DNA of 64,000 bases, taken from positions 372,001-436,000 of the forward strand of contig RSEE01000010.1 of NCBI GenBank assembly GCA_003971905.1, given 5' to 3'. This DNA comes from Moniliella sp. 'wahieum' (taxonomy: Eukaryota). The translations under genes and the position numbers were made by a program. Below the pieces are notes generated by a model. The model had not been told where the DNA came from. It searched no databases and was given only the letters and a program-made list of their open reading frames with translations. Below, one piece after another: positions 4,163 to 54,555 of this stretch. The stretch's first letter is position 1. Every line of letters begins with the position of its first letter.

Positions 4163-4926
4163 CTACAACGTGTCGAACAGCCGGTCGCCCGTGTCGCCGA
4201 GACCGGGCAGAATGTACCCCTTGGCATCGAGGTGGTCGTCGATCGCGGCCGTGTAGATGGTGAGGCCGGGAAAACTTTCAGCGAGATGGGTGAGGCCCGG
4301 GCTGGACCCGAGGATGGACAGGAAACTAATATCCTCCACCTTGAGACCCCAATCGAGAATCATGCGCACACACGCTACTGCCGTGTTACCGGTGGCGACG
4401 AGCGGGTCGAGGATGAGCACCTTGGCCACAGTCGGGTGGGAGGGGAGCTAGGACGACAGGCCACAGAGTCAGTTGGTACATTCCATCTCAACAGCCGTGC
4501 AGGAAATCTGCCACCAAGAAGACAGGACAGCGGACAGCTACATACCTTGTTGTAGTACTCGACTGGCTGCAGCGACACTTTTTCCCGGTACAGACCAATG
4601 TGAAGGACAGAAGTGTTATCGGGCAAAAGGTTGAGCGCTGCTTCGGTCATGCCGAGTCCGGCGCGCAGAATAGGAACGACACCCAGGCGCGGCGTCACTT
4701 CGCTGCCGGTGAACTGCGCCAGAGGGCCTGCGCCCTGGACTTGGTGGGTGGACAGGTCCTTGGTCGCCTCAATCACCAACACCGACGTAATCTGCCCAAT
4801 GAGGAAGCGCACGTCCCGAGCCGACGTCTCAGCCAGCCGGAGGTTGGCCAGATGGTGCTTGGCGAGCGGATGGTCGACGACCGTGACGCCCGGGACGGAC
4901 GAAGAAGCGGGCGCAGGGGTGCTCAT
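4163..4926 (-). CDS. upp: Uracil phosphoribosyltransferase (upp-type); 2 exons, intron about 4545-4448
   Basis: VPILRAGLGM, HIGLYRE, ILDPLVATGNT and GYILPGLGDTGDRLF; a GTATG..TAG intron joins YYNK to LPSHPTVAKVLILDP. Confidence 0.93.
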
Positions 4927-8771: not shown

Positions 8772-10426
8772 CTACCGCGGCTCCACCGCCAGACGCGTCG
8801 CCACGTCCTCAACCACCGCCTGGTGCAGCTCATTGACCACGTCGTGAGTCAGGTTGCTGTCCATGTGGCGGTACGTGATGCGGTAGCAGCGCGACGAGCG
8901 CTGCGTCTTGGGATGCGTAAACTCGTCCACCAGCTCCACCGATTCCACCAGGTCGCCCGCCCGGTCGCGAATCAGCTCGCAGAGGTCATTCTCATGGAAC
9001 ACCTTTTTGTCCTCGGCCGTGTCGGGCGAGCCAATCCAGAACGAAAAGTCCTTGAGCACGGGGGGGTATTTCGAGTAGGGCTGGTACGTTACCAGCATCT
9101 GCTTTGTCAGATCTGCCTCCTCCACCTCCTGGCCGGCGTCGGCCTTGTCCAGCGCGGTGGCTGCCGCCTCAAACTGTTTCAAGAAACGTTCATCCTGGGA
9201 CCAAAAGAGGCGAATGTCAGGGATGCTGTACAGCACCATGGCAATCCGTTCCAGGCCCAGACCAAACGCCCACCCCAACTTGCCCGGCTGGTGAGCGTTG
9301 TCGAGCTTTTTGCTTCACCACGCCCGTGCCCAAAATCTCAAGCCACTTGCCCCGGAACAACACCTCGATTTCAAACGAAGGCGCAGTAAAGGGGAACGTA
9401 GCTGCAATCCAGCGTACCTGCAGTGGCTCCGCCTCAGCGCCCTTTCCCGACGCGAGCACGTCGGCTTCGTGACGAGGACCAAACAGAGCCAAAACAAGCG
9501 TGTTGAGCGTTCCCTTGAGATGGCGCAGGGCTAGTTCGGCCTGTGCACGGTCCATGCCTGGCTGCCAGCCATCGGAAAGAGCAGGATCCACATGGTCCTC
9601 AATCTCAATGTTGGCCCCAGCAAGCTTGCGTTCGAGTTCTAGACATTCCCTCTCAACGACCCCGCCAGGGGCGAAGTCGCCATTGGGAATAGAGAACACA
9701 CGCGCACCCTCCATTTGGTGAAAGATGGGGTAGTGCGATGCGTCAATCTCGTCCCGCCGATACACGTCGGCGGTGAGCAGCCAGCTGTCGTTGCCGGCAG
9801 CAAACGAGGCCACCTCGTGGGCGCTGGTGTGGGTGCGGAGACATACGTCACGATTGGCATAGTACGTGTCGGTGGGGCTTCGGCCCGGATGGTCCATCGG
9901 GAACCCCAAGTCGTCAAAGTTGAGCTTGGAGGTGACAAGGGGAGATGGTGCGGGAAGAGGGGTCATACCTTTCAGGGTGCGCTCAATCGTACGACGAATC
10001 AAGCGCAGAGGACTGCGCTTGTTGCTCATGGCAAGGGGTACGTCCTTGAGACGAGCAGCCAAGACGGGAGAGATGTTGGTAAAATCGTCCCGAGGAAGGT
10101 CTTGTCCCAGCACCGTGATGGTGGCGGACTCGCCCTTGGGGGAGCGAGAAGGGGTGCATGAACAAAAAGAGCGTGGCGATGCCTTACAGCAAAGAGGGAG
10201 AGATACGTCAGAAGTAGTTCAAGCGGGGACAGAGGTGAAAAAGAAAAAAAGAAGGAATGCTCACTCCTGCCCAGATTGTTGGCTTGGGCCTGATTCCCCG
10301 CCAGAGCGATGCGGACGGAGACGGTGCACAGGCCCGCAGAGCAAGAGTGGACGCGGCCTGGGGGCGACCGCGAACGGGGGCCAGCGCGGCCCGAGACAAC
10401 GTGGTGAGGCGGCCTGGGAGTGGCAT
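8772..10426 (-). CDS. MSF1: Mitochondrial phenylalanyl-tRNA synthetase; 5' intron near 10264-10184 and frameshifts
   Basis: [49 protein letters not shown] and [13 protein letters not shown], with a C-terminal FDX-ACB domain; Arg/Ala-rich presequence [15 protein letters not shown]. Confidence 0.93.
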
Positions 10427-11970: not shown

Positions 11971-12430
11971 CTAGGAAAAGGCAACGGAAGACTCGATATC
12001 GTCAGGAGGGGAAGGAAGCGGACAGAGCCACCTGTCACGGTCCGTCTCGGTGGCAACGCGGCCGGACGTGTCACCCAACCTATACGTGGCGGTGCCTATC
12101 GCCCCATCAACCCGTAAAGGCGGAGTCCAGTTGGCGAACATGGCACCAACAGGGTCCGAAGTGCGCCGAACAAGCAGCTGTTGAACCCAGGAGCATAGTC
12201 CAGCCGCCGATGCGGAGCAGGCTGTGTATTGCGGATCCCGGAGCGCGCGGCTGAGAGAGCGCTTGATCCGCTTGATGCCTGCGTCTGCGGGCCCGTTTCT
12301 TTGAGGATTGTAAGCGCCAATGTGCATCTGCTGCACATCTTGCGAGACCAGATACCGAGACGCCATGTCGCTGCGAATGCCCCTTTCTGAGTCAGTGATA
12401 AGCGTCTCAGGCGGAGAAGGAGGTTCATTC
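11971..12430 (-). pseudogene. Truncated retrotransposon integrase (C-terminal core plus GPY/F-like segment)
   Basis: PETLITD...HIGAYNPQRNGPADAGIKRIKRSL resembles P..I.SD...AYHPQ.NG.AER; WTPPLRVDGAIGTATYRL resembles W.GPF.V...G..TY.L; stop codon next to the PPT. Confidence 0.75.
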
Positions 12431-14062
12431 GAGACGGGTAACCTTTTCTGCGCAGTACGGACCGTGAAGGTCACTCGCTGCGCTCGGGTCAGGGCCGCTG
12501 CTGGGGTGCGACTGCTGGGTCTGGAGGGCTGCAAAAGGTTCGCGGCGAATGCGCTGGGCAAGTTTCTTCTTCTTGGCCTGCATTTTCGACATGCCGCCAG
12601 GAACCGCGGGCGCAGGCGTCGACGGCGTCGGGGACGGCAATACAGCTGCCGCCGGGGCTGGGCGTGCAGCCGTAGACGCTTTGGAGCGGTTGACCCATGC
12701 TTGATTCGTCCGGACAGCTGCGCGAATCCCGCTGTTTAGCTTGGTGAACCAAGTATCCCAAGAGCAATGAGCGTCCACCAACTCCTGTAGAGCAGTGCCA
12801 AGGAAACCATCGACGGACGCAATGACGTTCTTCTGTATTTCATAGGCACTGGCTGCACCCAAGAGGGCGTAGTCTGCGCGAACGCGGTCCGGGAGCTCAC
12901 GTGGTGTAAGCCTCTGGTAGTGATTGCCGCTTCGAATCTTGGCCAGGTGGGCGGCGAATGCGTTGCGGGGACGGACAGCACGGAGGAGCCCTAACTTGAA
13001 GTTAATCCAGCAGTTCGCATGCGGGGGCAGCGTGGCGAGTCTAGCGGTCGCCAAGTAGGGGCCAACGACGAACTCTTTCGCGAGGGAGCCACTGGCCCTG
13101 GAGGCAGGGTCAATGTCGTAAGCTTCCAACAGTTGTTCGAATTCGAGGATCCATGCGGGGAGGCTGAGGGGATTCTCGTCCCATTTGGGCGGCCCGCGGA
13201 AGTCATTGCGGATTCGAAGAGGGGGCTCGGTGACGCGGCCTTGATCCGCTTGGGTAATCTCCTCAGGTTCGACAATCGCTGCTAGGAGGCTAGCCGATCC
13301 GAGAACGTCAACAGGATCCGGGGTCTTCTTCGAGCGGGGAACGGGGGCGTCGCCTACGGCCGCAATCGCGTTCTCCCGTATTTCATAGGTGCCGGCTGCG
13401 CCCACGAGGGAGTAGTCCGCGAGAACGCGATCCGGGAGGTCACGCGGTGTAAGGCTCCGGTAGTGGTTGCCGCTTCGAATCGAGGCCAGATGGTCGTCGA
13501 GCGCGGTGCGAGGTTGGACAGCTTCGAGAAGCCCTAACTTGAAGTTAATCCAGCAGTTCGCATGTGGGGGTAGCGTGGCCAGCCTAGCGGTCGCCAAGTA
13601 GGGGCCAACGACGAACTCTTTCGCGAGGGAACCACTGGCCTTGGAGGCAGGGTCAATGTCGTAAACTTGCAACAGTTCTTCGAATTCGAGGATCCATGCG
13701 GGGAGGCTGAGGGGATCCTCGTCCCATTTGGGTGGTCCGCGGAAGTCTGTGCGGACTCGAATAGGGGGCTCAGTAACGCCGAATTGGTCCTCGTGGGTAA
13801 TTTCCTTAGGTTCGGCAATCGCTGCGAGGAGGTAGGCTGCTCCGGGAGCGGCAACAGGAGCCAGGCTCGTGTTTGTAAGGGGAACGGGGGCTCCGCCTGG
13901 GGCCAGGACCAGCGCCTCGAGCGGGCAGTCAGCAAGCCATTGGCGAAGCGCAGCCTTGGATTCGCCATTCTCGGCGGCGAATTGCTCACCGCCGTTGAGA
14001 CGGACGATGTCCCTGAGGTGGTTGATAGCGAGGAGGTCGAGGAGCGAGGTCGGTTGGGACAT
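12425..14062 (-). CDS. Gag-like protein (about 545 aa) with a tandemly duplicated capsid-like domain
   Basis: Uninterrupted ORF from MSQPTSLL; two units of about 160 aa at a 543-bp offset, each with FRGPPKWDE.PLSLPAWILEFE.LL and CWINFKLGLL, resembling retrotransposon capsid helices; located between the PBS and the integrase stub. Confidence 0.7.
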   Translation of the reverse strand: MSQPTSLLDLLAINHLRDIVRLNGGEQFAAENGESKAALRQWLADCPLEALVLAPGGAPVPLTNTSLAPVAAPGAAYLLAAIAEPKEITHEDQFGVTEPPIRVRTDFRGPPKWDEDPLSLPAWILEFEELLQVYDIDPASKASGSLAKEFVVGPYLATARLATLPPHANCWINFKLGLLEAVQPRTALDDHLASIRSGNHYRSLTPRDLPDRVLADYSLVGAAGTYEIRENAIAAVGDAPVPRSKKTPDPVDVLGSASLLAAIVEPEEITQADQGRVTEPPLRIRNDFRGPPKWDENPLSLPAWILEFEQLLEAYDIDPASRASGSLAKEFVVGPYLATARLATLPPHANCWINFKLGLLRAVRPRNAFAAHLAKIRSGNHYQRLTPRELPDRVRADYALLGAASAYEIQKNVIASVDGFLGTALQELVDAHCSWDTWFTKLNSGIRAAVRTNQAWVNRSKASTAARPAPAAAVLPSPTPSTPAPAVPGGMSKMQAKKKKLAQRIRREPFAALQTQQSHPSSGPDPSAASDLHGPYCAEKVTRLE

Positions 14063-14122
14063 AGCGATTTGTTTTGAGGGAGCGATGGAGTCGATGGAGC
14101 GACGCCTCGGAGCGGAGATTAG

Positions 14123-14137
14123 CGCGTATACTCGATA
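14123..14137 (-). promoter_or_regulatory. Putative self-priming primer-binding site
   Basis: 15 nt, 4 nt downstream of the 5' LTR, exactly complementary to 14233-14247 inside the LTR. Confidence 0.7.
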
Positions 14138-14141
14138 ACTC

Positions 14142-14363
14142 TGTAGCGACGCAAGTATGCCAGAACGCAATCGAGACACAGCAACAGTGTCTACGATGCA
14201 GACAGCGGATACAGCGGAAGACAGATGAGGAGTATCGAGTATACGCGGGAGCAAGATACAGGTGGTGGGAAGGTAGATACAGGTGTGTCTGCAAGATGAA
14301 AAGAAACCCTTCTGAGTAGGGAAGCTCACTGAGGAAGGCGCAACCACCCACGTGGCAATAACA
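14142..14363 (-). repeat. 5' LTR (222 bp)
   Basis: The + strand reads TGTAGCGAC...AATAACA; shares blocks such as caatcgagacacagca, acgatgcagacagcggatacag, agatacaggtggtgggaagg and gaaaagaaacc with 11727-11953. Confidence 0.8.
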
Positions 14364-14511
14364 GGAGTGCATGTCGCAGTCCTCAGTAATTTCATGTCCA
14401 CTAAAGATGAAGATTAGGTAACCCACCCCATCAATCCCTTTTTTCCAGATGGCTCAACGACTTCCGCCTCTGCTGTGGTCTCCACCACCTCCATCTCACC
14501 GCACCATTACC

Positions 14512-15510: not shown

Positions 15511-17371
15511 TTATTGTTGTCCCGTGGGGGGCATAAATGGAGGCCACATAGCGTGGGGGTAGGGTGCCGTCATGTGCATATACGGCATGGGATTGGGGTA
15601 GGCCATGCTGGGGGCCATTGCATAGGGGGCGTATGGCATTGGCGGCTGGCTGGGTTGGGTAGTAGAGGCTGAGGGAGGGTGTGGGGTAGATGGCTGCATA
15701 ATGGACGAAGGGCCTTGTGTAGGGGCCATGCCGGACCAATTAGTTGGCGCCTTGGAGGCGGAAGGGGCGGAGGGGGCAGGTGGGGCAGGTGGGGCAAGAG
15801 GGTGCTCACCGCCTTGACTGGATACATCGGCCAATGCACGATAATAACCAAAGTAGAACGAAGCGTACGAAAGATTTTGCATGATCTCGTCGTGGGTCAG
15901 GCCCATGGCACCTACACCGGTTCCAGGCTGAGAGGGTGGGACTGGTGGAAGAGTCAATCGTCCTGGCGGGCGGTGGGACATAGGAGGCTCGGGTTTCGCT
16001 AGTAAAGGCTCGATTGGTGGAACATGTGCCTGTTTCGTTTCGCCATCCTCTCGTGTAACTCGATCAGCCACAGCAGGAGCCATGGACGAAGCTTGAAATG
16101 CGCGAGTAGGAGAAGGTGCACCTTGATTCGGCAGACTAACCAAAGAGTGCGATGCTGGCACCTCATCCTTCGGGGCCTCGCGCTGTGCCTTGGCCCTGGT
16201 CTGTACCACCTTGGCCTTAAGCTGCAATAGCTCTCGATGTTTCTTGCGTCGCTCATGAAGAATAGCATACTCTGCCTCGGCTTGTTCCCAAGTATCGACC
16301 AGCTCAGAGTCGTCCCACACCTCGTTGTGGGGCCCAGAGACAAGATCGCCCCATGTGAGCTTCATCGGATCCTCTTCTTCCATCTCATCGAGATCGCTAG
16401 CGTACTCGCCTTCGTCTTGGTCGCCTTGGTGCTCGGCCTCTGGCAAATGCTCCCTTTTGGCCACGCCAACTTCTTCTGAAGCAGTAGCCTCCCCCATATC
16501 GCTTTCGGCCATGTCCGATGGCGAACGCAAAGAAATCCGGCCATCAGTTGCGAGGGGAGGGGACTGTGACTTTGTAGCTGTACCAGAATGTTGTATTCTG
16601 GACACAAGGTGGCCCAATGGTTTGTCCTCTCCGTCCTCGTCTTGAGCAGTTACCGCCATGTCTTCCGCTCCTGATGATCCACCATGCTCAGTATGATCAT
16701 GCTCAACATCATCATGGGTCCTGCGGTGGTTCTTCACACTGCTATGCTCTTTGTACCAATCCCCATCAGCAGGGTACGTCCCGTTTCGGGCAGCAGCGAC
16801 TTGCATATTGGTCGCCAGGGCCCGCGGACCGGCACGCGTCGCATTGACGATGCGAGATGTGCCATCGGAGACACGTTTGCGCTTAAGATGAAATGGCAAG
16901 CTCTCCTCGGACGCGTTCGTCTTGGTCCAGGAAGATGTGACCGGGGTCTGGGGGGACTGTTTTAAGGTCGTCGAGTTGGGGCGCTGGCGCTTCCGCCCTG
17001 AGCCTGAGGCAGAGCCCGAGGCAGAGCCCGGGGCAGGGCCTGGGGCATGGACCCGAGCAGGGCCCAAGGAGGCCTCGCGTGGAGTGAGAGGTGCGCGCAA
17101 GGGGCTCTCTTCGAGGGACTCCTGTTTGACGTGAACCAATTTGGCTGTAACTGGGGGAGAATGAGACGGGTCGAATGCTCGGGGAGTGGCCGTCGCGTCG
17201 TTCTGGCGCTGCATCTCGTCGTCGGTCTGGAGTAGAAAGAGGTCCATCTCGTCCGCATCGTCGTCTTCAACCACACGAGGATCCGCGACTGGGGCGCCGG
17301 CATGAAATCCAGAGGGAGCAGCAAGGCAGCGTGTGGGGTGAGGACTGCTTCGGGGGCGCGGGAGACGCCAT
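15511..17371 (-). CDS. Survival motor neuron (SMN)-like protein with a long disordered N-terminus
   Basis: VWDDSELVDTWEQAEAEY (Gemin2-binding-like) and MQNLSYASFYFGYYRA (YG-box-like); the start at ATG 17371 needs a 1-bp correction. Confidence 0.7.
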
Positions 17372-17598
17372 GATGGTAGCAGCTGGCTGCAGCAGAAACC
17401 GATGCGATTTCGATGGCCAAAAAGTGTACCCGACGTGCCGCAGCACAATGCGACGCGTTGTGGCTTATGTAACCCCCGGACTCGCGTTGCGGAGGCGCCG
17501 GCGCTTCCAATTAAACCCGAGGACCAAGCAGGCAAAGCGGCTCGGCCGGCCTGGGGCGAGTTGTTGGTCTGTACCCAACCACTGCGGCCTCCGCTCCG

Positions 17599-18384
17599 AT
17601 GGCCACCGGCTTCAATGCCGCCGAGTTCCACGAGCGTGTGTACGACGTGGTGCGCATGATCCCTCGCGGCCGCGTGACCACCTATGGCCATGTGGCCAAG
17701 CTCGCAGGGTACCCCGGCTATGCACGCGCCGTCGGCACCGCTCTCAAGGGACTCCCTTCCGATCCCAACGTATATGCCACCAACCTGGACGAGGACGCCG
17801 GCGTCGTCGATGATCAATTTCCGGATGTGGATGGAGCCGATGCGCCTCTTCCTTGGCAGCGGGTCCTCAGCGCAGGTGGTTGGATTGCAGAACGTGGGTT
17901 GGCCGATGGCGGTGTGGGAGCCAATCATCAAGCGGACGTTCTGCGAGCCGAAGGTATTCAAATTGTCGAGCCGCGCGGCGGAGGGATCAGCACACAACGC
18001 GGAGCACGACTGCGTGTGTCGCTTCATGGTGAGGAAGGTTATGGATGGTGTAAGTTGTTTCCCTCACATTGTCTAGCTCGGCCTGAACGGCGTTCTTGTT
18101 TGTCTGCAGTTCCATCCGCGGTGCGCACGTCCGTTTCCCCACAGTTGGAAAGCCCGCCGGCTCATTCACCAAGGCACTCGCCTGTTATTTCATCACAAAA
18201 CCCGACAAGCCCCAGCGCCTTCCACCCCATTGATGAACAACCTGCTAGCACATCCGAGCAAGACCATCCGTCCCGTCCCAATATCTCTAGACGAAGAAGG
18301 CCGTCTGGATCGGGATCGGAGGAACCCAGCCCACCTGTTCGGCGCAGCAAACGCCTTAAAGCCCGTCTTCCTTCTTCTGGCTAA
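17599..18384 (+). CDS. atl1: Alkyltransferase-like (ATL/MGMT family) DNA-damage-binding protein; probable intron about 18049-18108
   Basis: VYDVVRMIPRGRVTTYGHVAKLAG, ARAVG, PWQRV (Trp in place of the MGMT Cys) and Q..LRAEGI. Confidence 0.85.
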   Translation: MATGFNAAEFHERVYDVVRMIPRGRVTTYGHVAKLAGYPGYARAVGTALKGLPSDPNVYATNLDEDAGVVDDQFPDVDGADAPLPWQRVLSAGGWIAERGLADGGVGANHQADVLRAEGIQIVEPRGGGISTQRGARLRVSLHGEEGYGWCKLFPSHCLARPERRSCLSAVPSAVRTSVSPQLESPPAHSPRHSPVISSQNPTSPSAFHPIDEQPASTSEQDHPSRPNISRRRRPSGSGSEEPSPPVRRSKRLKARLPSSG

Positions 18385-18620: not shown

Positions 18621-19925
<1,305 letters not shown>

Positions 19926-21429
19926 CGCGCTGGACTGCTTGTGGTGGGTACAGAAGGTGGTAGTAGGCAACCTGAACCAAGGCTCGTAGCGCAGACTCGA
20001 CGGTGAAAGGATGAAGCGGTGAAGCTGGGGGCAGGAAGAACCATCGCTGAGAATCACCGATCATCGGCATCCACGTATTTAAAAGTGCCACTTTTCCTTT
20101 GGCTTCGATGCTGGAAAATTTGCCGTGACGCCGCGTGACATTATACACTGCTCCTGTGCTGCTCCGTCGTTTCAAATCCCTCTTTCGAGTAACGAGCATT
20201 GTCCGTGTATAATGACCTCACACAGAAAGCTTGAACTTGAAGCCAACTCTTGAAGGTTAAATGTGAAACGTAAAGGTCCTGAACGTCCTGAACGTCCTGA
20301 ACGGAGCACCTGCGTTTACAAAAGGCCTCAGGACCTCTCAGATCCCGTGACCAGTGAGCCCCCCAGCGGGTTTCAGCGCTCCAAAAGTGGAGCCGATCCA
20401 CAATATTCAATGCACCTATCTCCAGGGGCTCGCGGTTGTCGTCATTGACTAATAGCAAGGCGAGTACACGCCATGATATGCGTACCCGCTGCCTCTGTGG
20501 GCAGGCGCTAAAAAACACTCTCCGCATGCCAGGAAATCTATAGAGCCGCCCAGGATGGCCACTGAATTTTAGATGGCAGTCTCGGAACAACGCAACGGCT
20601 ATCTGCGGGGGCAAAAGCCCTGGCATAGGCCAGATCCGCGAAAAGGTGGAAAGAACCGATCGGCAGTACCTAACAAAGCAGACCTCCGCAGTCAACATAA
20701 TAGTACCTGAGACCAAAACAGAGAGACCACTAGAACGCAAAAAGTTGTATTGTACGTACCCACTAGGGTACCGCGGAACGGATGGCGGACCCAGAGGGTC
20801 CTGTGATATCCTGTGGTGATTCCCTGGTTCCTTAACAGGGGTGGCGCTACCAAGCAATACACGCAAGATTAACGGGGCGGTTTAGACGTACAGCCTTTCC
20901 CTTTCCCAACCTTAATCTCTGTCAATGATATGGATGCAGTATTGTATGCAAACGTAAGATAAAAGTGTCTGATCAGACGTTGGACTCGCTGTTGCACGCG
21001 TAAGCCACTTTTATTGATAGTTTATCGATTATCGATTATCCCACTCAATGTGTTGGATAACTGGAAATGGGTGGGGATAGATTTCTTGTAGAAGAAGCTA
21101 GCTTCCATAGGGTCGAGAGAAGGAGAGGCGTAGAAGGCATTACTTCATTATACGATACCCTCACCGGCCTCATCATCTTCTGTCCATGCCATTCCAGAGC
21201 TACACAAATATTTATGATGGGCACGGGATCTCAACAGCTCTGAGATCTGACTGCGGACAGAGAGCCGATGTTACGGGGTGCTCCGGTGATCCCCGGACGC
21301 TGAGCCCCGCAGGTCATAGACATCTCATCGGAACACGCGTCAGTCCTGTTAGACTAGCGAGAGAGAGCCAGTTGACGTCGTTGACACCTTTTATCCATGA
21401 TGCGGATATCATCCACGGCCCGCCGTGGC

Positions 21430-33340: not shown

Positions 33341-35477
33341 TTACATCAGGCTGGCCCATCCGACCAGCAAGGCTGCCCCCAGAGCTGCCAACGAGGGCAA
33401 GGTGTGCGCAGAGGCACTGGTACGGCCTTTGCTCGTTTCCGCACCTTGTGGGGGTGAGGTGGCCGTTTGAGGTCCCGTGCCAGTGTAGATGGTCATTGGC
33501 GGCTGGTCAAAGCCGGAATTGTTGCGGGGAACGGGGAGAGGGGAGAGGGTGCCAATGTCTGGCTTGACGGGCACCATGCCGATCGTGCTCATGTCGCCCC
33601 CAATCGAGACAAACTTGCCCTGGGAAGGGACACCGGCGATGGTCACAAATAGCAGCGCTGGGCCCTGGGTAACTAGGTTCGGGTTGGGGGTGGTAAAGGG
33701 TTTACCGTGTAGACCACGCTTCCATCTTCCTGTACGTCCCACGTATGTTCGAGTTGGAGCGCGCGCTGGCCCATGTGCATGGCGTGGGTGGCAAAGCCAG
33801 GACGAATGACCATGAACTTGGTCGACGCCGCGAGGGCATTGGATGATTTGTTGAAATAGCGAGCGGGGACGGTGACGTTGAAACTGGGGCCACCATAGGG
33901 TAAGACGGTTGGCAAGCCTTGGGGTTCGGGCCGAGGCGCAAAGAAGTAGTCCGGGTACCAACGTTCCAAGACATATGTGGTGTTGTACCCCGGCTTGCTA
34001 GATGCGAGAGGCATGCTGAGGCTCACATCTTGGTGCGGGTTGCTACCACCGATCAGGACCGAGCCATCGGGAATGAGCAAGGCAGTGGAATGGTACAGCC
34101 GGGCATATTGGGAGGAAGAAAAGTTGGCGCGGCGAAGCGCTTGCCCATGGGTGCTTCGGGAGTATACAGCAGAAGTGTGGTGACTGGTCCAGCCGCAAAT
34201 CCCTCCAAGTTGATTGTCTGGCCATTGTGCTGAATCGTGTTCCACGACGTATTGCCATAGCCCGACGTACCGTTCTCGGCACCATTAACAATCAGCATCT
34301 GGCCTGTGGGCAGAAGGACAAACTCGCCCATGGTCCAACCGTGGGGCAGAGGGTCTTCTTGGACAAACTGCGGGTTGGCCATTGGCGAGCCATCGGCATT
34401 TTCAGGTATGATTGACGCACAATTTGTGGAGGCTGGGGTTTCATACATGTTGATGTTGGGCGCCGTGTAGTTACCCCATTGGTCATCATCATCAAGTACA
34501 GTACCTCCACAGAAGAGAATTTCCGGTGTGTATTTGTTGGCCGGCGTGAGCGGCTTCATGGCAGTCGCTGCCGATGCAGGGTACACCCTGACCACTCCAC
34601 CAGGTGTGTCGGGTAGGGGGGTTTCCACGTTTTGGTCATGGTCCCAAATGATGTTGGAAATGTTGGCGTTCATAAAGATCTTGCCACTGGGGAGAAGGAA
34701 CATATGAGGGTACATATTGAGGCCACTGGTGGTGGTCATGAACTGGGACATCTGCATGCCTTGGTAAGAGCCGGGGGCGCTGATGTTGGTACGGTTAGGG
34801 AAGTACTCGTAGGTCGGGTTGGCTCCGCCCACATCGAGGTTATAGATGGATCCGCCACCAGTTGCGGTGGCAAATGTGGGGTCCGTATTGGGCGTGTTTC
34901 GGTTGATGTATCCGCCACCTGTAGCGCCTCCAACGATCACGGCCTCCCCGGAAGCGAGCGTCTCGACTGTGGGGTACCAACGTTTGCTTGCCATGGCCAA
35001 ATGGCCATCGTCGTCCCAGTTGAGGTTGGAGGCGGGCACATTGATATCCAAGAGACGGATGGCCTTGCGCCCATCGAGATTTTGGTATGGGTTGGCATCG
35101 CCTTGGAGAGCGGCACCCCCGTATTGTACGGCCTGGTTGCCACCAACGACGATCCAGGAGCCATTAGGCATGGTAGCGCCAGCAGCACAAAATGTGTTGG
35201 TCTGAACATCCATCGCTCGGGCCGAGCCATCGGTGAGGTCAATCAGCGACGCCCAGACGGGTTTTCCGCTGGGTAGCTTGGCGGGGTTGCCCTCGACCTT
35301 GTCAAGGACAAAAACAGTTTGGTTGTCGACGAGACCGAGCATCATGGCTGAAGCAAGAGAGTCTTTGGTGAAGACCTCGTACGTCAGCGGGGCCGCACCC
35401 TGGGCGTGAGGGACGGCAGAGAGGGAGAGAGCGAGGCCGGCGATGAAGGCCGCCTTCACAGCCGAGCGGCGCATCAT
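33341..35477 (-). CDS. Copper radical oxidase / glyoxal oxidase (AA5_1), secreted, probable GPI-like C-terminus; frameshifts near 34120 and 33700
   Basis: Signal peptide MMRRSAVKAAFIAGLAL; NTFCAAG, RWYPT, MYPHMFLLPSG, RVYPASAA, RLYHSTALLIPDGSVLIGGSNP, GFATHAMHMGQR and PGP-like ALLFV; hydrophobic end ALGAALLVGWASLM. Resembles the Ustilago Glo1 type. Confidence 0.92.
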
Positions 35478-44244: not shown

Positions 44245-46455
44245 TGACCAACCAGGTCGGCCTTATGACACCCCCCAGCTCTCCTCTTTCCAGACACTAA
44301 GTATGAACGGGGGGCCAGAAGCGGAAGCGGGGTTGGCATTCTCGGAGTTGCATGACCCTCCACCCTCTTCGTTCGGGTCAGATCGCCATTCCACTAACAT
44401 TGGGTCCATGGAGCAAGATCGAGGGGAAGGTGGATATCATCCTCCGCATCCCCGTAATTCCCCCTACCTTCCTCCCGAAACCATCCTATCAAAACGTGGA
44501 TCTACTCAACTCGACTCCAACGACTCGTTCCCAGGTCTCTGTCATATCCGCACCTGTCGGAGCGGACCCTGCCTCGCGCAGTGCAAACCATTCTGCAGTT
44601 ACCATTCCGGCGCAACAATCTCTGCGATGTCCGTCCGTCGTCTCACATCCTTCCGAGCCATTCTCTGTTGGGGGGTTCGTCCTTCTGTTGCTGCTGTTCC
44701 TGCCTCAGTTGCGGAACACTCGACCGATTCGTCCTTCCGCACCCGATCTTCCGTTTCTCCTAGTCTTCGAGTATCGGAGGAGGGTCTGTCGAACACGCCC
44801 CAGAGCACGCCCCCAGAGTATCCGACACTTACGACATCTTGGTTAAAACCTGCTGCGGATGCACAGGCTGCAGTAGCAGGACCGAGAATGAGCCCAGACG
44901 ACGATGCGATGATGGACCACGCCATGGCCCTCTACCCTAATGTGCGAAAAGTTATGCGTCCTCGGTTGCTCAAGCCGTGTCCCATCCGTGGGTTTTCTGC
45001 CACAGAGGCCGACCTGGTGGGATGACGAATTGGACCATATTCGGTCCCAACAGAACCCCGTTTGTCGCGCGAATCCGACTCACGGGCTTCGACCACATCC
45101 CATGACACGCTCCTTCCAGGTCCCAACCCTGACAGCACAACCACTGCCACCAGCACCTCAATCGGACGGGCGCTCCTGCGCACGACCTTCCCGCACTCTC
45201 CAAACAGCACCATACCATCGCACCTCCTTGCACAACCATCCCTCTCATTCTCCCGTTATATTGCCTCCACGCCATCAACACAACCTATCTGATTGGGGTC
45301 ATGAAGATATGCTGAACCTTGCTTCCGCCATGCCGCTTACTCTCCCCACCTTTCGCCCTGAAGACTTTCGCAGCCCGCGCGCACGGGCCCGGGAGCGCCC
45401 ACCACTGCAGCTTTACCCCAAGGAGAGTACGCCCACAATTACCCGTCATAGGCCCTCTGGCTGGCTGGCAGAGAGAACCAAGTTGAATCACACCCAGTCC
45501 ACACCCCAGCTTGGCCAGTATCCTCGGCACGCCCTATCTGCTGACGTGTACCGTTGACCACATTGGCCCCTCTACCCCTTCTCACATTCCCACCCATCTC
45601 CGCATAACGCTTGTGTATCGCCTGTAGACCTGTGGTCCGTGGTCCCAAGCTCCATATTAACCCTTTCTAACTAAATGCCCATTCAATATGCACACTAGCG
45701 ATGATATTTGATCCAACTTTCATCGTATGCAATCAGCCCTACGCCCTCCGCCTCTCCTTTCTGCCCTTTGCTGCCCCATTCACTCGGGAGTCCCTCAGAT
45801 CTACACGACGGAGGAATGGGCCCTGGAACACGACCGACCGCATCTGTACCTGATCCCAGTCCCACGGGAGGGTTGCATCCTGCTGGCAACTCTACAGGAA
45901 CCTATCCACATGGGATGGAGACGCAGGCGAGCATGGATGGATAGGTGGATGGGTGGTAACGGGGGGTGACGCGGCGTGGGATCAACTAAAAGTGGGGCAA
46001 AAGAGAATAAAAACAAAGCCAGCCAAAGGAGTGGCGGCTTGCGGACTCGGCAGAGAGCGCAGAGGTGACGTCACACCGGGCTGGCGGGTGCCGGTGGCCC
46101 GGGCGGGGGGCAGGGGGTGGCAGACGGCGGGGGGCGGCAGGGTGCCGGCGGCTTAATTCCGCACCCGCTCTGGCTTTTCACCCGAGCGCGCTGGCTGAGC
46201 TGGCCGTCCGGGGCAGGTGGGCGAGGCAGCTGCCAGCGCGTCTGCTGGCCCAGAGCCGCGCGATGCGTGAAACGAGGGGCCAGCGTTTAATGCCCGGCAC
46301 TGCAGCGCTGTGCGCCCACACGTCGGCCATGTGGGCCAGCTTCGATCTAGCACGCCGACGCCTGCCGAAGGACGCCGCCCACCCAGCGCTTTTAAGAAGG
46401 CCCCGCCGCCACTGCCACCATCACCGCTCCCCCCATCCCCACCTCTTCCTCCACC

Positions 46456-47715
46456 ATGTCGCCCATCCCCAAGGAAAGACTGCCATCCTCGCCAAGAACG
46501 ACGACGATGGTGCGTATGCTGCGCGCGTGGAGCCTCTGCTCTTGGTACTGACGTCTTCCTCTCTCCAGTCGTCATCGTCTCGGCCCTGCGCACGGCCATT
46601 ACCCGCGCCAAGAAGGGCGGGCTCGCCCAGGCGTGCCCTGAGGAGATGCTCGGCAACGTTCTCAAGGCTGTCATTGCCCAATCGGGCGTTGACCCCAAGC
46701 TGATCCAGGACGTGGCTGTGGGCAATGTGCTCCCCCCGGCGGCGGTGCCACTGTGGCTCGCATGGCTGTCCTCTGGGCTGGCATCCCGACACGTCGGCTG
46801 TCAACACGATCAACCGCCAGTGCTCGTCCGGTCTGGCTTCCGTTAACCAGATTGCCAACGAGATTTCCATGGGCCAGATCGACATTGGCATTGGCGCCGG
46901 TGTGGAGTCTATGACGCAGAACTACGGCGCTGGCGTGATGCCCGAGAAGATGTCGGACGCGGTTTTGGAGAATGAGCAGGCGAGCGACTGCCTTCTCCCT
47001 ATGGGCATCACGTCGGAGAATGTGGCCAAGAAGTACCATGTCTCGCGCGAGGTGCAAGACGAGTTTGCGGCAAAGAGCCAACAGAAGGCGTTTGCCGCCC
47101 AAAAGGCTGGCAAGTTTGTGTCGGAGATTGTCCCTGTCACCTACGAGGATGACGATGGCAACACGCGCACCATTTCGGCTGATGACGGGATCCGCGAGGG
47201 TGTCACGGCAGAGGGGCTCAAGAAGTTGAAGCCTGCCTTGACAAGAATGGTGCTACCATGCCGGCAATGCGTCGCAGGTGTCGGATGGTGCTGCGGCGGT
47301 GCTCTTGGCCCGCCGGAGTGTTGCCAAGAAACTCGGCTTGCCTATCCTGGGCAAGTTCGTTACTGCGGCTGTCGTTGGCGTGCCCCCCAATGTGATGGGC
47401 ATTGGCCCAGCCTTTGCCATCCCCCGTGTTCTCGAGCTGACCGGCCTCAAGAAGGAGGACATTGACATTTACGAAATCAACGAGGCGTTTGCTTCGCAGG
47501 CCGTGATGAGCATTGACACGATTGGCCTTCCCTACGAAAAGGTGAACCCCAATGGTGGTGCTATTGCTCTGGGCCACCCCTTGGGCGCCACTGGCTCGCG
47601 CCAAATCGCCACTGCCCTGGCTGAGGCTAAGCGCTCGAAGGCCAAGCTGATTGTGACGTCCATGTGCATTGGCACGGGCATGGGCATGGCTTCGGTCATT
47701 GTTTCGGAGCAGTAA
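46456..47715 (+). CDS. POT1: 3-ketoacyl-CoA thiolase (POT1/FOX3 type); intron about 46511-46568; frameshifts
   Basis: INRQCSSGL, GAGVESM, MGITSENVA, SDGAAAV, EINEAFASQ, GGAIALGHPLGATG and SMCIGTGMG. Confidence 0.93.
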
Positions 47716-50932: not shown

Positions 50933-53900
50933 ATGACCTCTGCATCGACAGATGCCGCCGGTGCTGTCGCCCCCGACGGCCCTGCTGCTCGGCCTCCAGT
51001 TGCGGAAGGTCGTGCCGTACTGGCACGAGTATGCCACCCACGCCAAGGCGCGCTGGATCAGCCGCGAGCTGCTCGAGGTGTATACCAATGAGTTCCGCGA
51101 CCGTACCAGAGAATACTACCTCTGGGCCATCCACAGCGGCGTCTGTACCGTCAATGGTCAAAAGGCGGGTCCCCGACACATTATCCGTGGCAACGACTGC
51201 ATCGTCACCCGCGTGCACCGCCACGAAGCCCCCGTCACTGCTGCCCCGATTCGCGTCCTTTATCGCAATGACGCGGAGGGGCGTCTAGTGGTGGTCAAGC
51301 CTGGATCCATCCCCGTTCACTCGGCCGGGCGATACCACCACTCGACGCTGGTCGAGATGCTTCGGCGCCAGCTTGACTTGCCCAAGATTTATACAGCCAA
51401 CCGTCTGGACCGCCTCACCAGTGGTGTCATGGTTCTCTCTTCTACCCCACACGCAGCCAAGGAGCTTGCCAGCGACTTTGCGCACAATAGGGTGCGCAAG
51501 TTCTACGTGGCCCGTGTCCGAGGCGAGTTCCCTCCCGAGCGCATTGTCTGTGCGCAGCCGATCCTTCCTGTCGATGCCCAGAGCGGTGTCAACATTGTCC
51601 ACCCACTTGGAAAACCGTGCGAGACGATATTTGAGCGAATCGCATACCACGCCTCCACCGATACAAGTGTGGTGCGGTGCCAGCCCATCACTGGACGCAC
51701 GCACCAGATCCGTGTCCATTGCCAGTTTCTCGGACACCCCATTGTCAATGACCCTGTCTATGGGCATCCGATCTCGTCTCAACAACCCGTTCCAACAGGG
51801 GGGGGGAAAGATATCGACCCTTCGGTCGCGCTGCAATCTAGTGGAACTGGATTGACGGGATCAGCCGCTGTCGACGCGGTGATTGCGGCTGCCCAGAAAC
51901 GGCGAGATGGGACGGAGGATTGGGTACGATGGAAAGACGAGGTGACGTTTGGCCGGTTGCTGCAACAGAGCGGGCACGAAATCCCGGCGCATCTCCCAGG
52001 TGTCAATGCTTCATCTGTTATCCCGAGTGATGCGAGCGAGACGCGAGATGAGGTCCTTGCTCAACTAGGGTTTCACAATCAGTCGAAGAACCGGTTTACA
52101 GATCGGATCAAGAATGGCGAGCAGACGGGGTTTTGCCCAGAATGCAAAGTACCCCTTTTGCCTGACCCGGATCCCGAGACTCTGTTCATCTTCCTCCATG
52201 CCTTCAAATACGAAACAGATCAATGGGCCTTCGAGGATACATTCCCTTGGTGGACAAAAGATGATTGGCAGGAACAAATCCTTCGTGCCCGGGAGGCTAG
52301 GCGTAATGCTGCCCAGAATGGGGAAGATCAATCAGTCTATGTCCAAATCCCCCAGGAAGAGCAAGCTCCCGCTTTGCAACGCGACACTATTGGTCAATCG
52401 ACCAAGAACGGCGCCCTTTCCGGCCAGCAGGGCGAAATGGCGCATACCTACCTCGACCCTTTGGCTGCTGCCGACGTCTCAGTTACTCCAACTGAAGAAA
52501 TTGGAGTGTTAAGCCAACTTGGGACAGGACCCGGTTGGACTCGACTTGTCACTCGTCCCGTGCTACGACTCGCTCCTGGGCGTCCTGCCCTCATTCCTTG
52601 TTCCATGGCCCTAGCCTTTTCCGTATTTGAAGGGATGGAAGACGTGGCTGAAACGGATGTGCGTCGTGTGGCAAGCCTACCGAAGCAAGTACTCCGCCGA
52701 CTCCCTCCTTCCTCCATATCAGGGGTGGGACACGATGGCATTCCTTCACTCGGGCCAGGTCGTAGTGTCGGGCGGAGAAGTGGCCACCCTCCTACTGCGT
52801 GCCTGGCTAGACGGAGAGCTCCGGGGCGCTGACCAGGCTCATCTCGTCCTTCATGAAATTGAGCTTTCACGAGTGATGGCACGGGCACTATTAACTGAGC
52901 GCCATTTTGTGGGAACGACGGGGCCCAGTGACGGTAAACGCAAGACCCCATCATCTCCCAAACAGAAGACTATCCCTACCCTCATGGAGATTGTCGGGGG
53001 TGTACACGAGCTGAACATGCAGGATCACCCGCCGCTACTTGGATCGGCACAAATCGAGTCTATTGATGAGGACCTGAGGGCCCTACCAATATCAGAGGGT
53101 GCTCTTCTCCAGAAGATGCGGGACGTATGGACCAGCCCGGAAGCCAAAGCGAGGAGGGATGCCGCCTTGGACGTATGGGCCAATGCTTTTAATGCTCGGG
53201 ATGGGGAGAAAGCGGGAGCGATTGAACCCAAGCCCGATGCAGTACAAGATACTTCATTTAAGCTATCCTTCGACCGTGGAGGATATATGCTTCCCTCGCT
53301 CAAACCGGCGGAAGTAGAGCCGTTTCTGAAAGAGGCCGTGTCGTCCTGGCTCAATGACTCGATCAAGCCTAGCGACCCTCGAATGAACTGTCCGGTCAAC
53401 TTGCACGCCGCTCAAATGACAGTTGCCCTTCGCATGGTCCCCTCTTGGCTCCAGATACCCCCAAAGTGGTCATCCGACCAAACAGACGAGCTTCGCCGTT
53501 TAGCTGCTGACCCCATCACTCAAACCGCATCGGCTTCCCCTCCCCCAGGGTCGATTTTTGCCACGATTCAGCTTCCTTCCCCACAGGACATGCCATTCCG
53601 CCGCGCACTCCCTCTCGACACAGTTGGTGGACAGGTACCTCTCCACCCCCACCGGGCTTCTACACTGTCATCGCTGGTCTGCCTCCCGATTGAGGGGCCA
53701 TCCTCAATCATTGATCCTTGTGCAGGCTGGGGCCAAATTCCCGCGGAGCTGCGCGAGGCTCTGAGAGCTACAAAGACACCAGCACGTCTCTATACTAGCG
53801 ACTTGGATCCTCACGCGGTAGTCATCGCTTCGGATCTGCTATTGCGGACCGGAACAGGTCGGGCCCTTAATCCCAGTATGACAAAGGTGGTAGATGCGAC

Positions 53901-54555
53901 CGACCCTGCGGCACTCCGTTCGTGGCTTGGGCTTCCCCATGACGAAGATGGGGGGTTGATGCAGTTGTAACCGAACTGCCATGGGGTCAGAAAGCAATGA
54001 GCGCCTCCCAATTACGAAAGTTCTACAAGGACTTTCTCCCCTCGCTCTTGCGCATCCTTCGTCCAGGTGGTCGCGCCATTGTGATGACTGTCCAGCATGG
54101 GCTGTTTGACCGAACCCTTATCGACTTCCAACTGACCCAAGCGGGCAAGGAGCCTTTGCCCACTCGCCAGCGGAAATCACGACGTGGCGCACCTCCCTCC
54201 CCCCCGTCGTTCGCCCACGACAAAGTGGACGCTGGAAAAGACATTTCTGGCCTTGCCGCCCTTGGGACACCGCGAGATGGAGCCGTCATGCAGGCTGGTA
54301 GGTGGTGCCGGTCCGGAGTCTGTCTCGGTTCAGTACTCCTCGTCTGAGGCGGATGAGCTCGGGGTGCACGCGATTGGTTACGAGGGATCCCCAGCCCGTG
54401 CTCAGGGCGTGTGGAACGCGGAGCAGCATGGCGGTCATCGCACCGCTCGCTCGGGCTACACGGTGGGAGTGTATGAGCTTCGCCGGGTTCGGCTCGAGGA
54501 CTGCGATGCTGAGAAGCCGTCGAAGCTTGAGAGCACGGCCGAGTCGGAGGCTTGA
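50933..54555 (+). CDS. RluA-family (RIB2/PUS9-like) pseudouridine synthase fused to a THUMP plus class I SAM-dependent methyltransferase; about 3-4 frameshifts
   Basis: LRKVVPYW, KPGSIPVH, NRLDRLTSG, TGRTHQIRVH and LHAFKY; then FEGMEDVAETDV, IIDPCAGWGQIPAE, YTSDLD, VVDAT and (adding 1 G) VDAVVTELPWG..RILRPGGRAIVMT. Confidence 0.8.

Follow-up and report, generated by a model that had tools for sequence, protein, structure and literature searches.

A predicted fusion of a pseudouridine synthase with a UPF0020 methyltransferase, conserved in Ustilaginomycotina, in Moniliella sp. 'wahieum'

Gene layout and the predicted parts of the protein

The gene described here lies on the forward strand of a 64,000-nucleotide stretch of DNA from Moniliella sp. 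'wahieum' (contig RSEE01000010.1, positions 372,001 to 436,000, of assembly GCA_003971905.1), which is referred to as the window and in whose own coordinates all positions are given. As delimited by tblastn of the two orthologous proteins P0001 and P0002, it extends from 50952 to 54555 (+) and can be followed through four frame pieces without internal stops. From the comparison with these and further orthologs it appears fairly probable that the gene is the local copy of a fusion conserved in the Ustilaginomycotina, which joins a pseudouridine synthase, a linker, a divergent THUMP module and a UPF0020 methyltransferase, and that the indels interrupting it are assembly errors.

The open reading frame (ORF) of the synthase runs from stop to stop over 50937-52832 (631 amino acids (aa), +). 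Its first in-frame ATG is located at 50952, and the ATG at 50933 that had been chosen as the start in the initial annotation lies in a different frame. The matches of the two orthologs are colinear along the locus, in frame 3 at 50988-52679, in frame 1 from 52666 to about 53950, again in frame 3 at 53955-54194 and finally in frame 1 at 54223-54498. The resulting frame pieces (50952-52670, 52675-53949, 53958-54194 and 54223-54552, followed by the stop codon at 54553-54555) sum to 1187 aa with no nonsense codon, which fits the length of about 1200 aa originally proposed. With P0002 and P0001 they share 68-69% of their residues, and with UMAG_02177 of Ustilago maydis 39%. Measured against an alignment of 39 orthologs (A1), from which all invariant columns mentioned here are taken, the window copy keeps 79 of the 81 invariant columns of the synthase half and 15 of the 16 of the C-terminal half. 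Of the ORFs downstream of the synthase, the one at 52615-53970 has no Pfam match by itself, and the one at 53943-54347 covers the second half of PF01170 with 35.1 bits (cut-off 22.3).

The N-terminal half is, judged from its sequence, an RluA-family pseudouridine synthase with an intact catalytic Asp. The catalytic domain PF00849 is found at 51285-51725 (96.6 bits against 26.8), corresponding to residues 117-263 of the 631-aa ORF, and the catalytic Asp codon at 51408-51410 is part of the block N-R-L-D-R-L-T-S-G, which is invariant in 39/39 aligned orthologs. This half closes with a conserved block at 52134-52253 that leads from a C-x-x-C (52134-52145) to a P-W-W ending at 52253 and contains the invariant residues C407, C410 and W445-446. 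The TIGR00005 model (rluA_subfam) is passed by all five orthologs tested (204-224.5 bits, cut-off 192.7), and the best solved relatives in a PDB profile search are RluC, RluA and RluD. The synthase would be of the Pus8 (Rib2)/Pus9 kind, an orthology that rests on the names given by annotators, as ortholog records are called 'related to DRAP deaminase RIB2' or 'tRNA pseudouridine(32) synthase'.

Beyond the synthase the same frame remains open through a poorly conserved linker of 117 codons (52254-52604, +), with 0 stops versus 1 and 4 in the other two frames, and continues into the start of the C-terminal module at 52605-52665, as the initial annotation had described. This start consists of a strand, a G-x-E-D (codons 52632-52643) and a helix, with G573, E575 and D576 invariant, and resembles the start of the ferredoxin-like subdomain (NFLD) of THUMP proteins. 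A THUMP-like core follows at 53086-53451 (+), delimited by hhalign of P0002 residues 725-848. Aligned to a template built from the PF02926 matches and their flanks in 32 proteobacterial RlmL and ThiI proteins, it scores 33.0 (E 5.6e-4, 99 aligned columns), while the reversed query scores 10.8 and the maxima of 40 column shuffles and 40 block shuffles are 15.0 and 24.8, so that none of the 80 shuffles reaches the score of the core. A protein feature search of the middle region, which can be taken as a lead only, returned THUMP, Trm11_N, RlmM_FDX and RlmL_1st clusters (0.90-0.93). A divergent THUMP core is hence likely to be present, and a ferredoxin-like subdomain ahead of it is plausible.

The UPF0020 Rossmann-fold methyltransferase domain, including its preceding helix, occupies 53653-54144 (+) and is broken by the second of three frame changes. 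Its identity as a methyltransferase, which the initial annotation had proposed, is supported by PF01170, by the PDB profile search and by hhalign. The S-adenosylmethionine (SAM) motif I, D-P-C-x-G-x-G, is located at 53713-53733 (columns 936-942 of A1, conserved to at least 90%) and aligns with motif I of RlmL-type enzymes; the motif II Asp is encoded at 53800-53802, with the DAT stretch in the same frame 1 piece; and motif IV, E-L-P-W-G, at 53973-53987 (columns 1021-1025) aligns with the N-P-P-Y-G of RlmL-type enzymes. The gene ends in a conserved C-terminal tail with the stop codon (54223-54555), identified by tblastn, in which R1177 (invariant) and G1182 (conserved to at least 90%) are kept. 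These later pieces agree with the description in the initial annotation.

Among the orthologs, PF01170 was detected in 6/6 of those scanned with 34.3-54.2 bits (48.6 bits for U. maydis) against the same cut-off of 22.3, and PF00849 likewise exceeded its cut-off in 6/6. In the PDB profile search the second half matched TrmN (3tma, 2.6e-9), AviRa and Trm14 (3tlj, 5.1e-6), and hhalign against bacterial THUMP-UPF0020 proteins gave a probability of 97.6% (E 3.3e-12) for an alignment that takes in motifs I and IV as well as the helix ahead of motif I. The Trm14 equivalogs NF040721 and NF040850 were reached with 16.7-37.1 bits versus required scores of 280 and 480, four of five orthologs matching at all. 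Pfam scans of the window pieces and of the orthologs returned no deaminase family, the C-terminal half being PF01170. These searches firmly place the C-terminal half, as far as a prediction can, within the guanine-N2-type UPF0020 superfamily and outside the named Trm14, TIGR01177 and RlmL families.

Distribution of the fusion

A search with the middle piece of the gene returned two longer relatives, P0001 (1255 aa) and P0002 (1199 aa), both carrying PF00849 and PF01170. The search with the synthase half yielded 56 long proteins, 36 of them with both domains, and intact two-domain orthologs measure 1000-1320 aa. By source, the 36 fused proteins comprise 19 with NCBI names, 2 from JGI and 15 from Logan. 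Eighteen of the 19 NCBI-named proteins belong to Ustilaginomycotina, namely to Tilletiaria, Thecaphora, Melanopsichium, Pseudozyma, Ustilago hordei, U. trichophora, Kalmanozyma, three Sporisorium, Testicularia, Violaceomyces, Ceraceosorus, Microstroma, Parajaminaea, Sympodiomycopsis and Jaminaea; the remaining one is labelled as a fern. Fused proteins are recorded under the plant names Adiantum nelumboides and Cichorium endivia (P0022 and P0203), most likely reflecting fungal contamination of plant assemblies.

Cluster look-ups add U. maydis UMAG_02177 (XP_011388527.1, 1145 aa), in which both Pfam domains are present, as well as Moesziomyces, Meira and Malassezia pachydermatis. For Malassezia, the Pfam scan found no PF01170 match in the proteins P0060 and P0024, yet P0060 aligns over its full length to the family profile (hhalign, 100%), and a metagenome contig (L124) contains a single continuous ORF of 912 aa that spans the whole Malassezia-type protein. 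A second, Malassezia-like metagenome contig (L125, coverage about 4) shows a frame change at about 4681-4694, between the synthase and the remainder.

The survey of Ustilaginomycotina orthologs that had been suggested along with the initial annotation hence finds the fusion in all three classes concerned, Ustilaginomycetes, Exobasidiomycetes and Malasseziomycetes. Judged from these predicted proteins, the fusion is real and conserved across the Ustilaginomycotina. The intact orthologs, in which the parts follow one another in the same way, further support that synthase and UPF0020 methyltransferase are encoded as one polypeptide, and together with the continuous ORF of L124 they bear out the single-polypeptide architecture proposed at the outset.

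The other 20 long matches of the synthase-half search comprise 2 Malassezia, 4 Agaricomycotina and 14 Aspergillus proteins with other partner domains. The Aspergillus proteins (P0043-P0056, 1008-1099 aa) combine PF00849 with PF01565 (FAD_binding_4), which represents either another recurrent fusion of the synthase lineage or a repeated merge of gene models. Ten Tilletia gene models (P0059, P0225-P0233) end right after the synthase. In this genus, either the methyltransferase half has been lost or split off, or the models are truncated.

Proposed function and its alternatives

The gene would encode one polypeptide of about 1190 aa in which an RluA-family synthase of the Pus8 (Rib2)/Pus9 kind leads through a flexible linker (65-122 aa) to a THUMP-type module for RNA binding, divergent and with a Lys-rich insert, and then to a methyltransferase of the guanine-N2 kind (Trm14/TrmN/THUMPD3/RlmL). 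Yeast Pus8 (Rib2) and Pus9 form pseudouridine 32, Pus8 carrying a C-terminal deaminase (PMC5699540). The N-terminal half resembles both in being an RluA-family synthase with an N-terminal extension, and Pus8 likewise joins a synthase of this lineage to a second enzyme (PMC5699540). However, its partner is a DRAP deaminase, whereas here it is a THUMP-like module with a UPF0020 methyltransferase, such that both halves of the fused protein would act on RNA.

Trm14, TrmN and THUMPD3 methylate G6/7, and THUMP enzymes bind the acceptor/CCA end of tRNA (PMC3367198, PMC8599901). With archaeal Trm14, TrmN of Thermus thermophilus and human THUMPD3-TRMT112 the C-terminal half would share the succession of a THUMP and a Rossmann-fold methyltransferase; motif I is common to all of them, its motif IV may likewise belong to the exocyclic-amine type, and TrmN and Trm14 are the best solved relatives of its methyltransferase domain (3tma, 3tlj). 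In contrast to these stand-alone enzymes of about 330-500 aa, the module here is attached to the end of a synthase, has a putative THUMP part so divergent that Pfam misses it, carries a Lys-rich insert and has a motif IV that reads D/E-L-P-W.

Two further systems can be compared. E. coli RlmKL (YcbY) is likewise a bifunctional RNA-modifying enzyme born of a fusion, with an NFLD-THUMP-UPF0020 arrangement (PMC3367195) and a methyltransferase domain that aligns with that of the fused protein, but it consists of two methyltransferases without a synthase part and acts on 23S rRNA. Pus10 combines a pseudouridine synthase with a THUMP domain (PMC5699540, PMC3367198); it belongs, however, to another synthase family, has no methyltransferase and carries its THUMP N-terminal to the synthase.

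By analogy with these enzymes, the synthase half would form pseudouridine at tRNA position 32, as do Pus8 and Pus9, and the THUMP-methyltransferase half would introduce N2-methylguanosine (m2G) within or close to the acceptor stem, like Trm14, TrmN and THUMPD3. In this reading, the THUMP module would hold the 3' end of the tRNA, and the long linker would let the synthase reach the anticodon arm. With its flexible linker of about 100 aa, the protein could modify a single tRNA at the two positions while keeping it bound; the fusion might otherwise do no more than co-regulate the two activities. A two-site tRNA machine of this type, with the THUMP on the acceptor/CCA end, m2G at position 6/7 (or 67) and a tethered formation of pseudouridine 32, is a speculative extension that we regard as unlikely. 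If true, it would be the first polypeptide to couple two tRNA modifications that differ in their chemistry and lie at opposite ends of the tRNA.

Several observations weigh against the proposed identity of the gene, and they are considered in the following together with the alternatives that they would favour. Some of them concern the THUMP region. The hhalign probability of the core is just 29.8%, and the Pfam family PF02926 went undetected at E values up to 10 in 6/6 orthologs and is absent from the precomputed domain lists of the long relatives. Against broader templates of 30 RlmL-type N-terminal halves and 8 short THUMP-UPF0020 proteins, hhalign scored 19.2 and 18.2, respectively, values that are not significant since column shuffles (12 for each template) reach 20.9 and 19.9. 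Furthermore, when the middle region was used by itself as query, the PDB profile search gave only matches at chance level (E 0.18 and 0.29), hhalign of this region against the single E. coli RlmL gave no match, and a forced global alignment was uninformative; a search for loci related to E. coli RlmL returned only Enterobacteriaceae with 82-100% identity, which are unsuited as a diverse template. At the module start, the alignment to the first 20 positions of RlmL-type proteins is weak (hhalign, E 0.023), and 1 of 30 shuffles reaches its score. Of the THUMP region that had initially been read from the sequence, the core is therefore moderately supported, by the profile-profile match with its clean controls, whereas the Pfam search is negative and the ferredoxin-like start is weak.

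With regard to the target, a passage of PMC8599901 states that m2G6 is absent from fungi and that THUMPD2 and THUMPD3 are not conserved there, which speaks against a Trm14-like activity in these organisms, although the statement predates any look at the Ustilaginomycotina. The methyltransferase half might act on a target other than the tRNA acceptor stem, for example on U6 snRNA in the manner of THUMPD2 or on mitochondrial rRNA in the manner of RlmL. In line with this, the models for the Trm11-like TIGR01177, for Trm14 and for RlmL match about equally and all far under cut-off, and the feature search places THUMPD2 and THUMPD3 clusters side by side. Yet the best solved relatives, TrmN and Trm14, are tRNA m2G6 enzymes, and the lineage of the partner synthase acts on tRNA (PMC5699540), so that a different target appears rather unlikely to us but is to be taken seriously.

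The fusion could also be real and its methyltransferase half catalytically dead in the clade of the window, serving there as an RNA-binding or targeting module. The consensus of motif IV is given as D/N-P/L-P-Y/F/H (PMC3367198), and both the E at the first and the W at the fourth place of the motif in the window fall outside it. Motif IV starts with E in place of D or N in the window, P0001 and P0002, whereas most orthologs have D-L-P-W-G, and Pfam misses PF01170 in the Malassezia proteins. However, E and W are chemically similar to the expected residues; motif I, the motif II Asp and L-P-W-G are still conserved in the clade of the window, the rest of the domain is conserved as in the orthologs bearing D, and E for D is a conservative exchange. 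We consider a loss of catalysis improbable for this clade.

To a similar degree we doubt that the window copy is a decaying pseudogene whose three frame changes are true mutations. The first change, from frame 3 to frame 1 at 52666-52679, was located by overlapping tblastn matches and does not fall on a homopolymer; the second, from frame 1 to frame 3, coincides with a G6 run at 53950-53955, and the third, from frame 3 to frame 1, with a C7 run at 54199-54205 inside a Pro-rich, poorly conserved loop. The initial annotation had repaired the gene with a single G; the run at 53950 holds up as a site of error, but the comparison with orthologs gives three changes. Since the orthologs read continuously across all three switches, these are not introns. 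A GT...AG intron of 64 nt at 52659-52722, which would restore the frame at the first change, was considered as well and rejected because the orthologs encode residues there and frame 1 of the window matches them.

Decay would find support in the presence of three frame changes within 3.6 kb, one of them away from any homopolymer, and in two departures from the family, in that one invariant Pro (P899) is replaced by Arg and 10 of the 31 columns of the C-terminal half with at least 90% conservation differ in the window. P899, in P0002 numbering, is invariant in 39/39 orthologs as part of an R-P pair before the methyltransferase domain; the Arg at its place (53602-53604) may reflect either a genuine substitution or an error in the sequence at this site. 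On the other side, there are 0 nonsense codons in 1187, the identity to the nearest orthologs amounts to 68-69%, and 94 of 97 invariant columns are kept.

Moreover, breaks of the same kind appear to be a property of the assembly. When sites are sought at which the coordinates of a Pfam model continue without gap while the reading frame changes, six intron-less breaks are found in three other genes of the window, namely three in a DAHP synthase (at about 19434, 19175 and 19070), two in a thiolase (at about 46760 and 47250) and one in a glyoxal oxidase (at about 33700). These frame-broken genes lie at 18624-20060 (-), 46271-47712 (+) and 33344-34284 (-), respectively. By contrast, the uracil phosphoribosyltransferase (UPRTase) and pantothenate kinase genes of the window show ordinary intron-sized gaps. 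This suggests that the assembly as a whole carries about one indel error per kb of coding sequence, and in view of these comparable breaks, single-base assembly indels are the most likely cause of the three frame changes, rather than gene decay.

The last alternative concerns the joint itself, namely that two adjacent genes merely appear fused through read-through by gene callers and ORF finders. From the base composition, the chance that the linker contains no stop is 0.013; among the 39 aligned orthologs it varies between 65 and 122 aa with a median identity of 13% and contains no stop in any of them. A split is indicated by an ATG just ahead of the second module in the window, by the Tilletia models, which are synthase-only (333-460 aa), and by the fact that support for the fusion consists of predicted proteins, ORFs and gene models and not of RNA, but with a linker free of stops in the window and in 39/39 orthologs, a Met that is not conserved (none at this place in P0002), a gap of 117 codons that would need to accommodate the stop and 3' end of one gene together with the promoter and 5' UTR of the next, and no stand-alone relative of the C-terminal half found among the 8000 word-sharing candidates shorter than 659 aa to which that search was limited, we regard it as very improbable.

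Elsewhere in the window, two long open frames at 12428-14413 (-, 662 aa) and 15514-18063 (-, 850 aa) match no Pfam family at E values up to 0.001. At 8775-10218 (-), a PheRS-type class II synthetase core is followed by an FDX-ACB domain, a pairing that we take to be typical of mitochondrial phenylalanyl-tRNA synthetase. Scans of the window for Rfam families and tRNA genes found none.

Significance of the fusion

With regard to novelty, the architecture is already present in public protein records, under names such as 'uncharacterized', 'pseudouridine synthase' or 'related to DRAP deaminase RIB2', and the gene in the window belongs to a family that the databases already contain, though unannotated, rather than being an invention of this genome. 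In the literature searched, subscription-only papers excepted, no paper was found that describes a fusion of a pseudouridine synthase with a THUMP-type guanine-N2 methyltransferase. The initial statement that no characterised protein of this architecture is known holds for the literature searched, although the architecture as such was already deposited in the databases.

The domain families are both well established, and with Rib2 and RlmKL there are precedents for fused enzymes that modify RNA. The fusion considered here spans a fungal subphylum to which the skin yeast Malassezia belongs and which has a genetically tractable model in U. maydis (UMAG_02177). If the methyltransferase half acts as proposed, the family would be a possible exception to the statement on fungi found in PMC8599901, and its existence suggests that m2G of the Trm14/THUMPD3 type is present in some fungi, contrary to a generalisation based on yeasts. 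As such, it would provide a natural test case for the question whether the physical linkage of two tRNA-modifying activities matters.

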